Virus record (IMG/VR): IMGVR_UViG_2718218131_000003
Span: 1-41,280 of that record
DNA from: a virus
Lineage: Duplodnaviria; Heunggongvirae; Uroviricota; Caudoviricetes
Reading direction: 5' to 3' (one strand)
Length of the DNA stretch: 41,280 nucleotides
Part shown: positions 4,433 through 31,357 of the stretch, one piece after another
Position numbering within the stretch: position 1 is the stretch's first letter
How the letters are laid out: the number at the start of each line of letters is the position of its first letter
Notes under the pieces: generated by a model
Seen by the model: only the letters and a program-made list of their open reading frames with translations
The model's database searches: none
What the model was told of the DNA's origin: nothing
Position numbers and translations under genes: made by a program

Positions 4433-4490
4433 AAAAAGGGCGGCAGAGCAGTCACGGAGTAAAACTGATACCGCCAAACGTCACCAGAAA
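4433..4490 (-). ncRNA. dicF: DicF small RNA (ftsZ-targeting sRNA)
   Basis: Reverse complement of 4438..4490 reads TTTCTGGTGACGTTTGGCGGTATCAGTTTTACTCCGTGACTGCTCTGCCGCCC, followed by a T-tract (intrinsic terminator hairpin GGCGG...CCGCC); matches DicF as recalled; sits between the ydfA-side genes and dicB as in the dicB operon. Confidence 0.8.
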
Positions 4491-10097: not shown

Positions 10098-10613
10098 ATG
10101 GCGTTAACACACCGCGAACTCTGTCAGATTGCGTACAAGTTCCTTAAGCGCAACGGGTTCAAGGTTTGCTTTCATGACCGCTTTATAGCTGTAACCAGTA
10201 CCGGAGAACAGCCAGATGCTATGGGATTCAGAAATTCAGCATCATGCCTGATAGAGGTGAAGTGTTCTCGTGCTGATTTGTTGGCAGATAGAAAAAAGCG
10301 TTTCCGTAAAAATCCCTCTCTTGGCATGGGCGACTGGCGATTCTTTATTAGTGAGCCGGGAATTATTTCAGTTGAGGATTTACCTCCTGGCTGGGGATTA
10401 CTTCACGTTGTTAACGGAAGAGTACGGAAAGTACATGGATGGCCCAGGGGTAATTGCTGTTGGGGTAATCCTGACGATAAGCCATTTACCGGGAATAAGC
10501 AGGTTGAATGCGATTACATGTTATCTGCATTAAGGCGCATGGAGTTGAGAGGGCACCTTAATGAAATATATGACGGTGTGATTGTTAATAAGAAAGAAGG
10601 AAACGCGGCATGA
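10098..10613 (+). CDS. putative PD-(D/E)xK-fold nuclease-like protein
   Basis: 171-aa ORF with GEQPDAMGF ... CLIEVKCSRADL, i.e. a PD ... ExK arrangement at the spacing seen in restriction-endonuclease-like folds; inference only. Confidence 0.45.
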   Translation: MALTHRELCQIAYKFLKRNGFKVCFHDRFIAVTSTGEQPDAMGFRNSASCLIEVKCSRADLLADRKKRFRKNPSLGMGDWRFFISEPGIISVEDLPPGWGLLHVVNGRVRKVHGWPRGNCCWGNPDDKPFTGNKQVECDYMLSALRRMELRGHLNEIYDGVIVNKKEGNAA

Positions 10614-11567: not shown

Positions 11568-11813
11568 ATTCATTACGATATGGGAATTCCCATATCGGGT
11601 AAAAACGGTTTGCGGGAAAAGGAGAGTTAAGTAGAATTGCTGCGGGTGCTTGAGGCTATCTGTCTCAGGCATGAACACCAAAAGGCAGATAGAGAAAAGC
11701 CCCAGTTAACATTACGCGTCCTGCAAGACGCTTAACATTAATCTGAGGCCCAATCTATGTCTCACAAATGTAGGTTAGCCTCTTACGTGCCGAAAGGCAA
11801 GGAGAAGCAGGCT

Positions 11814-11969
11814 ATGAAGCAGCAAAAGGCGATGTTAATCGCCCTGATCGTCATCTGTTTAACCGTCATAGTGACGGCACTGGTAACGAGGAAAGACCTC
11901 TGCGAGGTACGAATCCGAACCGGCCAGACGGAGGTTGCTGTCTTCACAGCTTACGAACCTGAGGAGTAA
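11814..11969 (+). CDS. hokD: Hok/Gef-family type I toxin (HokD/RelF-like)
   Basis: 51-aa product MKQQKAMLIALIVICLTVIVTALVTRKDLCEVRIRTGQTEVAVFTAYEPEE matches HokD (RelF) as recalled; AAGGAGAAG RBS upstream; the in-frame upstream extension from 11757 may be a mok-like leader. Confidence 0.85.
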   Translation: MKQQKAMLIALIVICLTVIVTALVTRKDLCEVRIRTGQTEVAVFTAYEPEE

Positions 11970-16530: not shown

Positions 16531-16606
16531 GGCCCTTTAGCTCAGTGGTGAGAGCGAGCGACTCATAATCGCCAGGTCGCTGGTTCAAATCCAGCAAGGG
16601 CCACCA
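16531..16606 (+). tRNA. tRNA with CAU anticodon, ileX-like (tRNA-Ile2, lysidine type) or Met
   Basis: 76 nt, acceptor stem GGCCCTT/AAGGGCC, anticodon loop CTCATAA, GTTCAAATC T-loop, 3' CCA; closely resembles E. coli ileX as recalled. Confidence 0.8.
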
Positions 16607-16607
16607 A

Positions 16608-16684
16608 CCGCCACTAGCTCATCAGGAAAGAGCGTCAACCCTTTAAGTTGAGTGTGCGAGGTTCGAGTCCCCGGTGGCGGTCCA
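16608..16684 (+). tRNA. tRNA, atypical; anticodon loop CCTTTAA (UUU/Lys if canonical), isotype uncertain
   Basis: 77 nt; acceptor CCGCCAC/GTGGCGG, D-stem GCTC/GAGC, anticodon stem TCAAC/GTTGA, T-loop TTCGAGT, 3' CCA; position 33 is C rather than the near-universal U and C1-G72 starts the acceptor stem. Confidence 0.5.
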
Positions 16685-16686
16685 GT

Positions 16687-16762
<76 letters not shown>

Positions 16763-16765
16763 TAT

Positions 16766-16840
<75 letters not shown>

Positions 16841-27144: not shown

Positions 27145-27897
27145 ATGGCAACACCAAATCCCCTTGAGCCGGTAAAAGGTGCCGGTACCACTCTGTGGGT
27201 TTACAACGGCAAGGGTGATGCTTATGCAAACCCGTTGTCAGACGATGACTGGCAGCGACTGGCTAAGGTGAAGGATCTGACGCCGGGCGAGATGACGGCA
27301 GAACCCTACGATGATAACTACCTGGATGATGAAGACGCGGACTGGACCGCGACCGGGCAGGGGCAGAAGTCTGCAGGAGATACCAGTTTTACGCTGGCCT
27401 GGAAACCGGGAGAAGAAGGTCAGAAAGGGCTTATAGGCTGGTTTGAAAGCGGGGATGTGCGGGCCTATAAAATCCGTTTCCCAAATGGCACGGTGGATGT
27501 GTTCCGTGGCTGGGTCAGCAGTATCGGTAAGGCCGTGACGGCGAAAGAAGTGATCACCCGCACGGTGAAAGTCACTAACGTGGGCAAACCTTCCGTGGCG
27601 GAAGAACGCAGCGAAATTACGCCGGCCACTGCAATTAAGGTGACACCGACATCCGGTACGGTGGCAAAAGGGAAAACAACCACCCTGACTGTTTCTTTTG
27701 AGCCGGAAAGTGCAACCGACAAGACGTTCAGAGCGGTTTCCGCCGATCCGTCGAAAGCCACCATTAGTGTGAAAGATATGACAATTACGGTAAACGGCGT
27801 GGCGACAGGTAAGGTGCAGATCCCTGTGGTGAGCGGAAATGGTCAGTTCGCCGCAGTGGCTGAAGTCACCGTTACTGAAGCGGGCGCTGCAGGGTAA
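27145..27897 (+). CDS. V: major tail protein (lambda gpV-like, C-terminal Ig-like domain)
   Basis: 250 aa; long identical blocks to lambda V as recalled ([76 protein letters not shown]). Confidence 0.9.
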
Positions 27898-27910: not shown

Positions 27911-28333
27911 ATGTTTCTGAAAACAGAACAATTTGAATATAACGGTGTGTCCGTCACGCTTTCCGAATTGTCTGCGCTGCAGCGGTTTGATTATATAAAG
28001 TTTGTTTCAGACGCAGAACAACAGGAGACAACGAAGCATGATGTCGTGCACATTAACCAGCGATATCTGGAAACGGCATCCCTGCTTGTGGCGATGTCGC
28101 TATGGCATTCCCATTCCCTCAAAGGCACTCTGGCCTCTCCGGAGACAGAGATGCAGCAGATCCGCCGTGAAGTGATGCTGGGATGGCCTGCTGATGCACT
28201 GAATCAGGCAACGAACCGGGTGCTTTATCTTTCAGGTATGCTGGATAACCGGCACGATGCCGATCCTGAACAAACCGGGAAAGCAGAAGCGACTGAGCCG
28301 GTAACATCAAAAAAGCATTCGAAGGCGAGCTGA
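27911..28333 (+). CDS. G: tail assembly chaperone (lambda gpG-like)
   Basis: 140 aa; MFLKTEQFEYNGVSVTLSELSALQR...LVAMSLWH parallels lambda G. Confidence 0.85.
   Translation: MFLKTEQFEYNGVSVTLSELSALQRFDYIKFVSDAEQQETTKHDVVHINQRYLETASLLVAMSLWHSHSLKGTLASPETEMQQIRREVMLGWPADALNQATNRVLYLSGMLDNRHDADPEQTGKAEATEPVTSKKHSKAS
28309..28315 (+). promoter_or_regulatory. programmed -1 ribosomal frameshift site A_AAA_AAG (G to G-T)
   Basis: Heptamer A AAA AAG sits in X_XXY_YYZ phase in the G frame, 18 nt before the G stop; the -1 frame is open from 28297 and continues as the T-like sequence (KKAFEGELNFVLKLAREMGRPDWR...). Confidence 0.7.
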
Positions 28334-28668
28334 ACTTTGTCCTGAAACTGGCGCGAGAGATGGGGAGACCCGACTGGCGCGCCATGCTTGCCGGGATGAC
28401 ATCCACCGAATATGCCGACTGGCGACGTTTTTACTGCACGCATTATTTTCAGGATACCCAGCTGGATATGCATTTTTCCGGGCTGACGTACGCCGTACTC
28501 AGCCTGTTTTTTTGCGATCCGGATATGCATCCGGCGGATTTCAGCCTGTTCGCTCCGGAGGCAGAGGAAGGGCAGGCGGAGACGCCGGACGAAAATGATG
28601 TACTGATGCAGAAGGCGGCGGGCCTCGCCGGTGGAGTCCGTTTCGGGGAGGAGGGAAGGAGGTTGTGA
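28315..28668 (+). CDS. T: tail assembly protein T segment (translated as G-T fusion by -1 frameshift)
   Basis: -1 frame relative to G; product region FEGELNFVLKLAREMGRPDWRAMLAGMTSTEYADWRRFY...VLMQKAAGLAGGVRFG parallels the lambda gpT portion of G-T. Confidence 0.8.
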   Translation, partial: AFEGELNFVLKLAREMGRPDWRAMLAGMTSTEYADWRRFYCTHYFQDTQLDMHFSGLTYAVLSLFFCDPDMHPADFSLFAPEAEEGQAETPDENDVLMQKAAGLAGGVRFGEEGRRL

Positions 28669-28702
28669 CAGTTATTGATGGTATCAGAGGACATTTCAGG
28701 AG

Positions 28703-31357
28703 GTGACCACGATGGCAGGTAATTTTGCCGATCTGACAGCCGTGCTGACACTGGATTCTGCCCGTTTTTCTGAAGAGGCAGCGCGGGTAAAAAAAGAGCT
28801 GGGTGAAACCAGTGCGCTTGCTGATTTGATGTCCGGGAAAGTCAGTCAGTCTTTCAGAAAACAGGCTGATGCTGCTGAGCAGAGTCTGAGCCGACAGGCG
28901 CTGGCTGCACAAAAAGCCGGGATATCAGTCGGACAGTATAAGGCTGCCATGCGCACACTGCCCGCACAGTTCACGGATATTGTCACTCAGCTTGCCGGTG
29001 GTCAGAATCCCTTCCTTATCATGCTGCAGCAGGGGGGGCAGATCAGCGATTCATTCGGTGGACCGCTCAGCCTGCTTACCCTGCTGAAGGAGGAACTTCT
29101 CGGGATCAGGGATGCCTCTGAATCATCAGAGGAGTCGCTGTCAGATACGGCAAATGCACTGGCTGAAAATGCCCGGAATGCCGGTGAGCTGGGACGATTT
29201 ATGTCGGTGGCCCGTGTGGCGGCAGGTGGCGGGGTTGCCGTACTGGCCGCGCTTGCTGCCGCCGCCTGGCAGGCAGAGCAGGCTGACCGGGCCTTATTGC
29301 GTTCACTGACCCTGACCGGAGGGGCTGCTGCCACCACAACGGCAGAATTGTGGAAAATGGCCGGGGTGATCAGCGATGAAGCCGGTGGTGGTATCAGACA
29401 GGCGGCAGAAAATCTGGCCCGTCTGGCAGAAAGCGGGAAATATACCGCCGGGCAGCTACGGATCATGGGGGAAACCTCTCAGAGATGGCTGCAGACGGTG
29501 GGGGACGATGCCGGGAAGGTGGAAAAAGCCTTTGAAGGGATTGCAGCAGATCCGGTGAAGGCGCTGGCCTCCCTGAATCAGCAGTATAACTTCCTGAGCG
29601 TTTCCCAGTTACGCCATATTGATGAGCTTGAGCGCACGAAAGGTAAACAGGCTGCGGTGACGGAGGCGATGTCCCTGTTTGCGGATGTCATGAATGCACG
29701 TCTGGAGCAACTTGATAAAGCGGCCACGCCGGTGGAAAAAATCTGGGACGATGTTAAAACCTGGACTTCTGACGCATGGGCATGGATAGGTGATCATACA
29801 CTGGGGGCACTCAGTCTGATCACTGACGTGGTGGCCGGAACCGTTGAACAAGTGAAGCTGCTGCTTGTGCAGGGGGATCTGGCGCTGGCTGAATTTATTC
29901 AGTCAGCCTGGGAAACGACAAAGAATGTGCCCGGCGTTGGTGCGTTGTTTGGTGAACTGGCAGAAGAGAACCGCGTATTTATTGAGAAAACAAAACGTGA
30001 TGAACTGGCGCTGAGAAAATCCATTGCGGAACGGGATGCGCGTATACGCCAGGGGGAAATGGGGTACATCAACCGCTCGCGTGCAACAGGCGTCAGCAAA
30101 GGTCCTGGGCAGCAGGAAGCCGTCAGCCGTCTGGCTGAAGAGCTGACAGGTAAAAAGCATACATCACCGAAAACGCGCTCTGCCGGGGAGAGGGAAGAGG
30201 AGCAGGCAAGAGAGGCTCTGCTTGCCCTTGAAGCTGAGCTCAGGACGCTGGAAAAACACAGCGGTGCGAATGAGAAAATCAGTCTGCAGCGCCGGGATTT
30301 ATGGAAGGCGGAAAGTCAGTATGCGGTCCTGAAAGAGGCTGCCACGAAACGACAGTTATCTGAGCAGGAAAAATCCCTGCTGGCGCATAAAGACGAGACG
30401 CTGGAGTACAAACGCCAGCTGGCTGAGCTGGGCGACAAGGTTGAACACCAGAAACGCCTGAATGAGCTGGCACAGCAGGCGGTGCGGTTTGAAGAGCAGC
30501 AGAGCGCGAAGCAGGCCGCCATCAGCGCAAAAGCCCGCGGTCTCACTGACCGTCAGGCGCAGCGGGAGTCTGAAGCGCAGCGTCTTCGGGACGTGTACGG
30601 TGATAATCCGGCTGCGCTGGCGAAGGCCACATCGGCACTGAAGAACACCTGGTCTGCGGAGGAGCAGCTTCGTGGAAGCTGGATGGCCGGGCTGAAGTCC
30701 GGCTGGGGCGAGTGGGCGGAAAGTGCGACGGACAGTTTTTCGCAGGTTAAAAGTGCTGCCACGCAGACCTTTGACGGTATTGCACAGAATATGGCGGCGA
30801 TGCTGACCGGTGCAGAGGCAGACTGGCGGGGATTCACCCGTTCCGTGCTGTCCATGATGACAGAAATTCTGCTTAAGCAGGCAATGGTGGGAATTGTCGG
30901 GAGTATCGGCAGCGCCATTGGCGGTGCTTTCGGTGGTGGTGCGTCTGCCTCCACGGGGACGGCCATTCAGGCTGCGGCGGCGAACTTCCATTTCGCGACC
31001 GGGGGATTTACGGGAACCGGCGGCAAATATGAGCCAGCGGGGATTGTTCACCGTGGTGAATTTGTCTTCACGAAGGAGGCAACCAGCCGGATTGGTGTCG
31101 GCAACCTGTACCGCCTGATGCGGGGCTATGCGGAAGGTGGTTATGTGGGCGGTGCCGGAAGTCCGGCGCAGATGCGGCGGGCTGAAGGCATTAATTTTAA
31201 TCAGAACAATCACGTGGTGATTCAGAACGACGGTACGAATGGTCTGCCAGGTCCACAGATGATGAAGGCAGTGTATGACATGGCCCGCAAGGGTGCCCGT
31301 GATGAAATTCAGACACAGATGCGCGATGGTGGTCTGTTCTCCGGAGGTGGACGATGA
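28703..31357 (+). CDS. H: tail tape measure protein (lambda gpH-like)
   Basis: 884 aa; C-terminal half near-collinear with lambda H as recalled (LQAELRTLEKHSGANEKISLQRRDLWKAESQYAVL..., GGFTGTGGKYEPAGIVHRGEFVFTKEATSRIGVGNLYRLMRGY, final MRDGGLFSGGGR). Confidence 0.9.
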   Translation: MTTMAGNFADLTAVLTLDSARFSEEAARVKKELGETSALADLMSGKVSQSFRKQADAAEQSLSRQALAAQKAGISVGQYKAAMRTLPAQFTDIVTQLAGGQNPFLIMLQQGGQISDSFGGPLSLLTLLKEELLGIRDASESSEESLSDTANALAENARNAGELGRFMSVARVAAGGGVAVLAALAAAAWQAEQADRALLRSLTLTGGAAATTTAELWKMAGVISDEAGGGIRQAAENLARLAESGKYTAGQLRIMGETSQRWLQTVGDDAGKVEKAFEGIAADPVKALASLNQQYNFLSVSQLRHIDELERTKGKQAAVTEAMSLFADVMNARLEQLDKAATPVEKIWDDVKTWTSDAWAWIGDHTLGALSLITDVVAGTVEQVKLLLVQGDLALAEFIQSAWETTKNVPGVGALFGELAEENRVFIEKTKRDELALRKSIAERDARIRQGEMGYINRSRATGVSKGPGQQEAVSRLAEELTGKKHTSPKTRSAGEREEEQAREALLALEAELRTLEKHSGANEKISLQRRDLWKAESQYAVLKEAATKRQLSEQEKSLLAHKDETLEYKRQLAELGDKVEHQKRLNELAQQAVRFEEQQSAKQAAISAKARGLTDRQAQRESEAQRLRDVYGDNPAALAKATSALKNTWSAEEQLRGSWMAGLKSGWGEWAESATDSFSQVKSAATQTFDGIAQNMAAMLTGAEADWRGFTRSVLSMMTEILLKQAMVGIVGSIGSAIGGAFGGGASASTGTAIQAAAANFHFATGGFTGTGGKYEPAGIVHRGEFVFTKEATSRIGVGNLYRLMRGYAEGGYVGGAGSPAQMRRAEGINFNQNNHVVIQNDGTNGLPGPQMMKAVYDMARKGARDEIQTQMRDGGLFSGGGR

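Follow-up and report, generated by a model that had tools for sequence, protein, structure and literature searches.

How does a lambda-like prophage make its G-T fusion protein when the lambda slippery heptamer, GGGAAAG, stands out of phase in its gene G and another heptamer, AAAAAAG, lies a little further downstream, and has the frameshift site moved relative to that of lambda? In lambda, the products of this region are gpG and a frameshift-made gpGT, with G binding the tape measure protein H and T recruiting the tail tube protein V (review by Atkins et al., PMC5009743); the -1 frameshift itself is the subject of Levin, Hendrix & Casjens 1993 and of Xu, Hendrix & Duda 2004, 2013 and 2014, as cited in that review. 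For the stretch of DNA analysed here (41,280 nt in full, henceforth the window), a sequence-only reading had proposed that the slippery site was relocated to a dnaX-type heptamer. The anatomy, orthology, conservation and domain content of the locus lead us instead to favour, with a probability of about 0.9, an ordinary programmed -1 ribosomal frameshift on an A_AAA_AAG that has stayed at the lambda position and would yield G-T; the occurrence and the rate of the shift we infer from these features.

With protein identities set by Pfam and BLASTP, G (start ATG at 27911 and stop TGA at 28331-28333, coordinates recomputed) matches the lambda gpG family, PF06894 Phage_TAC_2 (E 3e-34), and aligns with lambda G across 140/140 residues at 43% identity and with zero gaps, both proteins being 140 aa long. 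The overlapping T segment matches PF06223 Phage_tail_T (E 4e-12), fusion residues 164-242 corresponding to profile positions 1-72 of 73, and shows 73% identity to lambda T. G lies between V and H, and the V-G-T-H gene order is that of lambda (Table 1). Judged from these proteins and their order, the locus encodes, in a lambda-like E. coli prophage, a tail assembly chaperone of the lambda G/G-T type. Its membership in the lambda G/G-T recoding family holds on every sequence-level criterion tested, with a gpG homologue, an overlapping gpT domain that has no credible start of its own, V and H on the flanks, and an in-phase heptamer at the lambda position.

Table 1. Features of the G-T region of the window, with the lambda and window codons from the heptamer to the G stop.
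Feature	Position	Strand	Basis or detail
Major tail tube protein V	27145-27897	+	Pfam PF16461 (E 1e-68) and Big_2
Gene G, tail assembly chaperone (0-frame, 140 aa)	27911..28333	+	ORF list, translation, Pfam, BLASTP
GGGAAAG out of phase (GGG_AAA_G), look-alike	28277..28283	+	phase 0
-1-frame TGA, bounding the T-frame ORF of the window on its upstream side	28294..28296	+	frame computation
Slippery heptamer A_AAA_AAG, predicted -1 frameshift site	28309..28315	+	X_XXY_YYZ phase; codons TCA AAA AAG, Ser133-Lys134-Lys135
T segment, -1 frame (117 codons + stop)	28315..28668	+	frame computation, Pfam
Predicted conserved mRNA structure, possible stimulator	28324..28392	+	folding; 8-nt spacer 3' of heptamer
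Tape measure protein H, start GTG 28703 or ATG 28712	28703..31357	+	Pfam TMP_2, Tape_meas_lam_C
Lambda, heptamer region to G stop			TCT GCG GGA AAG TGT TCG ACG GTG AGC TGA
Window, heptamer region to G stop			ACA TCA AAA AAG CAT TCG AAG GCG AGC TGA

The frame arithmetic of the sequence-only reading held up on recomputation, with A_AAA_AAG in the X_XXY_YYZ phase and an open -1 frame leading into T. No stop interrupts this frame between 28297 and the TGA at 28666-28668, and it provides 117 T codons beyond the heptamer. The predicted G-T, join(27911..28315, 28315..28668), is 252 aa long; its predicted junction reads …EPVTSKK-AFEGELNF…, the continuation after EPVTSKK being AFEGELNFVLKLAREMGRPDW, and the predicted junction-spanning Glu-C peptide is ATEPVTSKKAFE.

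As a word, neither heptamer is rare in the window: counting both strands, AAAAAAG occurs 17 times where shuffles predict 8.05, and GGGAAAG 10 times where they predict 5.93. An in-phase A_AAA_AAG is present in three long plus-strand ORFs (at 10292, 28309 and 38484), but a long -1 frame follows only in G, with 117 codons as against 3 and 7 at the other two. The latter (10292-10298 and 38484-38490, inside the ORFs 10098-10613 and 37879-39198, all on the plus strand) are probably incidental shift-prone sites. At the window's own rates, the chance of an in-phase A_AAA_AAG in the 37-nt G/T overlap, with its ~10 in-phase positions, is ~0.003, and that of any in-phase X_XXY_YYZ is ~0.04; positional orthology with the proven site of lambda is a stronger argument than these word-chance figures. 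The assignment of A_AAA_AAG at 28309-28315 as a functional site for a predicted shift into T is supported by this anatomy.

On this assignment, a minority of the ribosomes translating G would move back by one base on the heptamer. Its P-site AAA and A-site AAG have one decoder in E. coli, the sole tRNA-Lys (mnm5s2UUU), and this would re-pair with AAA AAA in the -1 frame. The shifted ribosomes would read on from 28315 through the 117 codons to the TGA at 28666-28668, giving a minority of 252-aa G-T beside abundant 140-aa G. As in lambda, binding of the tape measure H would fall to G and recruitment of the tail tube V to T, and the G:GT ratio would be set by the low shift rate. This rate would be lambda-like, at a few percent, and the conserved structure 8 nt downstream of the heptamer possibly helps.

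As to whether the site has moved, in the window and in lambda alike the first base of the heptamer lies 24 nt ahead of the final base of the G stop, and the A_AAA_AAG of the window shares its alignment columns, codons 133-135 of 140, with the G_GGA_AAG of lambda. Because G aligns gap-free with lambda G and the distance from heptamer to stop is equal, the heptamer has not moved. Relocation by an indel is ruled out by the same gap-free colinearity, and the relocation put forward in the sequence-only reading gives way to a substitution at the lambda-orthologous codons. By alignment, the site is orthologous to that of lambda; its P-site codon is AAA in place of GGA, and the base ahead of it is A in place of G (GCG GGA AAG to TCA AAA AAG). 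The two loci further share an A-site A_AAG read by tRNA-Lys, as well as the downstream sequence and its predicted RNA structure. They differ in the P-site, which is GGA (Gly) in lambda and AAA (Lys) in the window, where both shifting tRNAs would be tRNA-Lys; in the junction, A-G-K-V in lambda and S-K-K-A here; and in T, which has 144 codons and two GGVRFG motifs in lambda but 117 codons and one motif in the window.

The upstream GGGAAAG, which starts 32 nt before the A_AAA_AAG (28277 vs 28309), is identical in all seven letters to the lambda site, and a shift there as in lambda is one rival reading. However, its phase is wrong for tandem re-pairing, as the sequence-only reading had recognized ((28277-27911) mod 3 = 0). 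Further, a TGA is found in the -1 frame at 28294..28296, as had been stated, 11 nt past this word. The column of the word corresponds to the non-slippery GAGGACG of lambda, and it is not conserved in the clade: of the 34 AAAAAAG-clade members, 24 have GGGAAAG here, five GGGAAAA (including VT1-Sakai) and five GGTAAAG (e.g. L046). We therefore agree that it could not make G-T, although this conclusion can do without the TGA. A shift at this word has a practically negligible probability, and on alignment the word is a chance match outside the signal. The -1-frame TGA itself is present in 28/34 clade members, with AGA instead in 6/34 (e.g. phage ASU11); this absence rules it out as a designed block.

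Aligning the G/T junctions of relatives, a check that the sequence-only reading had suggested, places the heptamer in the columns of lambda's. In 88 E. coli-type sequences (the window and 87 loci), the heptamer column holds GGGAAAG in 54 and AAAAAAG in 34, and nothing else; the AAAAAAG is kept in 34/34 members of the clade, while nearby bases vary. We also surveyed phi80, HK225 (N15-like), mEp043, Klebsiella Kp4865-4 and cdtI, along with 160 IMG/VR loci of the phi80, N15, Klebsiella and cdtI types; in these 160, the column holds GGAAAAG in 159 and GGGAAAA in a single locus (L188, as G_GGA_AAA). Four heptamers thus occur at the orthologous column, namely G_GGA_AAG, A_AAA_AAG, G_GAA_AAG and the single-locus G_GGA_AAA. 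Across 51 distinct relatives, the AAA at heptamer positions 4-6 (28312-28314) is invariant and the G at position 7 (28315) is conserved at 90% or more. The aligned junctions show a fixed site at which the P-site codon drifts among GGA, AAA and GAA.

The phi80, N15, HK225, mEp043 and Klebsiella G-T genes resemble that of the window in family, in the shift-site column, in a short T of ~115 aa and in the architecture of the downstream stem. They differ in that a P-site GAA gives no canonical XXX triplet, whereas the heptamer of the window is fully canonical. This non-canonical G_GAA_AAG stands at the shift column in phi80 (L107) and in L108-L111, L113 and L115-L274 of our locus list, L188 excepted, and the phi80 record FN582354 annotates it as a slippery sequence (heptamer 695-701 in L107) along with a joined G-T CDS. 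A comparable alternation of G_GGA_AAN and A_AAA_AAN is reported for the G-T genes of related haloarchaeal viruses (PMC5009743). In Vibrio phage HY01, the final base of the G stop lies 12 nt beyond the start of a C_CCA_AAA.

Some observations concern the composition of the locus set itself. One locus (L035, IMGVR_UViG_2713896770_000024) joins a G end of the 143-aa type, with GGGAAAG, to a T 5' sequence of the window type; this mosaic therefore has a recombination boundary at the slippery site. Scanning IMG/VR with the cdtI T returned near-identical copies only, and scanning genome contigs for wider diversity gained little, returning mostly lambda-identical low-coverage contigs in unrelated assemblies. 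The T region of such contigs (L090-L102), in assemblies of Neobacillus, Pseudomonas, Kitasatospora, Shewanella, Enterococcus and others, matches the query at 77%, like other lambda-type matches; many of the contig names give a coverage of ~1x or lower, and these contigs look like contamination by lambda control DNA. The lambda 95-nt junction sequence is present in 17 loci in total.

That T needs a frameshift at all may be asked, given that VT1-Sakai, ASU11 and RefSeq carry T as a separate CDS from the ATG at 28360, from which independent initiation would give a 102-aa protein. The bases before this ATG, GCGCGAGAG, hold no properly spaced Shine-Dalgarno sequence. Moreover, the 15 T-frame codons that precede it (AFEGELNFVLKLARE) match the VFDGELSFALKLARE of lambda, and conservation at the protein level extends, also with phi80, up to the heptamer. 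Untranslated codons are not expected to stay conserved, and an independent start is therefore disfavoured. An in-phase slippery heptamer is also conserved exactly where the T frame opens, the review of the lambda system gives gpG and gpGT as the products (PMC5009743), and the phi80 record has the joined CDS. We regard independent initiation of T as very unlikely.

Even with the T frame in place, the locus might be in decay, with T reduced to a truncated pseudogene of a defective prophage and the heptamer now a functionless relic. In a 100%-identical E. coli genome, T carries the PGAP label of a pseudogene 'missing C-terminus', and past the TGA at 28666 the frame continues into remnants of a long-T C-terminus (…LLMVSEDISGGDHDGR). 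Yet the Pfam T domain is complete, covering profile positions 1-72 of 73, and a T of 115-117 codons is found in 15 other loci of the clade and in one locus of the GGGAAAG clade, besides being the normal form in the phi80, HK225 and Klebsiella types. Phage ASU11, induced with mitomycin C, shares both this heptamer and this short T, and retention of the heptamer in 34/34 clade members amid varying neighbouring bases again speaks against a relic. We consider decay highly improbable. As observations on the T end, the window at 28666-28722 reads QLLMVSEDISGGDHDGR after the TGA in the same frame, resembling the C-terminal end of long T; against the long-T clade member L046 it shows two deletions of ~42 nt in total; and short and long forms of T occur with both heptamers.

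The six consecutive A residues of the heptamer raise a third way of reaching the T frame, by slippage of RNA polymerase with the ribosome uninvolved, of which bacteria and phages provide known examples at long A/T runs (PMC5009743, PMC3711429). The documented transcriptional cases, however, use runs of ~9 or more (PMC5009743, PMC3711429), and the orthologous sites with A3 (GGGAAAG) or A4 (GGAAAAG) keep the same architecture, so that a ribosomal mechanism explains all of them. A_AAA_AAG is, besides, a measured ribosomal shift site in E. coli (PMC4066793). Transcriptional slippage accordingly merits little credence, and is in our view hardly probable.

Immediately downstream of the heptamer, the mRNA is predicted to fold into an outer stem (28324-28330 with 28386-28392), an inner hairpin (28349-28356 with 28377-28384) and an apical stem (28358-28375), with an MFE of -34.4 kcal/mol and a z-score of -3.46; a matching architecture is predicted in lambda, phi80, HK225 and the Klebsiella relatives. 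In 51 distinct sequences, pairing holds in 87% of cells, compared with 22-43% in slid controls; both sides have changed in five pairs, as at columns 16-84, with AU in 30, GC in 18 and CG in three, and 0/500 shuffles reached the observed covariation score. These figures are to be read for what is the most conserved coding stretch, among related sequences, with a cdtI type that folds differently and several singleton variants that break pairs. Sliding RNAalifold over 450 nt without the cdtI type returned a strong fold only just 3' of the heptamer, where the consensus reaches -18 to -22 kcal/mol as against 0 to -7 elsewhere (80-nt windows); run on all 155 sequences, a set dominated by the divergent cdtI type, RNAalifold found no structure. 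Sharma et al. 2014 scored the lambda gpG cluster as having no Shine-Dalgarno (SD) element but a structure (PMC4066793). On these folding models, it is plausible that the downstream structure acts as a stimulator.

Published measurements bear on what the change of P-site codon would do to the shift rate. In E. coli, Sharma et al. 2014 obtained 0.29% for AAAAAAG and 0.28% for GGGAAAG with no stimulator, 4.3% and 3.8%, respectively, with the IS911 stimulator, and 39.0% and 43.0% with the IS3 stimulator (PMC4066793). In a second family of tail chaperones, Antonov et al. 2013 report 7% for an A_AAA_AAG cassette and 6% for a G_GGA_AAG cassette (PMC3711429, Table S2). Because AAAAAAG and GGGAAAG perform alike in these measurements, the substitution of GGA by AAA is expected to be near neutral for the G:GT ratio. 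For lambda G-T, the shift occurs in ~4% of passes, and thiolation of tRNA-Lys matters, hypomodified tRNA-Lys raising the rate (PMC3296357). With both slippery codons being Lys, it is plausible that the sensitivity of the window's site to tRNA-Lys modification would be similar to or above that of lambda. Because the bare heptamer shifts at ~0.3%, a rate of a few percent would imply a stimulator.

The label 'dnaX-type' given in the sequence-only reading fits only the letters of the heptamer. The dnaX tau/gamma system has the identical A_AAA_AAG, likewise decoded by the sole tRNA-Lys (PMC3711429, PMC5009743). However, an SD-like element precedes the dnaX heptamer and a stem-loop follows it, the shift there occurs at ~50% and the product is shorter, whereas the window has no SD-like element, extends its product from 140 to 252 aa and is expected to shift at a few percent. 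A search for an SD-like stimulator 6-17 nt upstream of the heptamer, the range following Sharma et al. 2014, encountered no GGAG, GAGG or AGGA (28292-28303, ACTGAGCCGGTA), and the dnaX hairpin is unrelated to the predicted downstream structure of the window. Another comparison is with the HK97-like chaperone (cluster A_AAA_AAG_25 of Sharma 2014, ECs1801; Phage_TAC cluster of Antonov 2013), which also uses A_AAA_AAG and has homologues with G_GGA_AAG at the same place. That protein, though, belongs to another family, extends from 124 to 226 aa, and is by these data not homologous to lambda G.

Four clustered tRNA genes lie on the plus strand of the window (16531-16840), for Met(CAT), Lys(TTT), Thr(TGT) and Gly(TCC). 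Among their anticodons, UUU and UCC are those that decode the codons found in AAAAAAG and GGGAAAG. Position 33 of tRNAs is normally a universal U. The 'Lys' tRNA (16608-16684) has the anticodon loop CCUUUAA, so that it carries C at this position; it scores 44 bits against Rfam, while the other three score 65-74, and it sits in the argN slot of Stx phages. One could imagine this phage tRNA (UUU, C33) as a dedicated decoder, shift-prone or shift-damping, that would tune G:GT independently of host tRNA-Lys modification, with the conserved downstream stem adding a second layer of control and leaving the P-site codon to vary freely among GGA, AAA and GAA; we hold this to be very improbable. A strict requirement of the G-T site for a phage tRNA-Lys is ruled out by ASU11, which has the same site with tRNA-Met/Arg/Arg. 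Rfam further identifies in the window a DicF RNA at 4438-4489 (minus strand, 76.7 bits) and a sok antitoxin RNA at 11644-11819 (plus strand, 120.1 bits).

The locus is widely distributed. Its DNA shows 100% identity to a prophage of E. coli Z1323CEC0006 and 99% identity to VT1-Sakai, CP-1639 and several Stx2a phages, and 641 of 5,426 complete E. coli genomes match over at least 80% of the query. The records that we inspected carry T as a separate gene or a pseudogene, and never as a slippage product. This weighs on the other side from the favoured frameshift, as none of the inspected clade records annotates slippage and the evidence for G-T here lies at the level of the sequence. Our literature search, which did not take in the primary survey of Xu et al. 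2004, found no paper on the heptamer of this clade.

The proposed mechanism is ordinary, and the recoding itself is textbook biology. For annotation, the correct gene model would be join(27911..28315, 28315..28668), and the variant that it describes is present in hundreds of E. coli genomes and in many Stx-converting phages. The family further offers a natural data point on slippery sites, in which GGA, AAA and GAA alternate in the P-site, whereas the Lys codon of the A-site (AAG except in one locus) and the downstream structure stay fixed; this alternation agrees with the published equivalence of AAAAAAG and GGGAAAG in E. coli.
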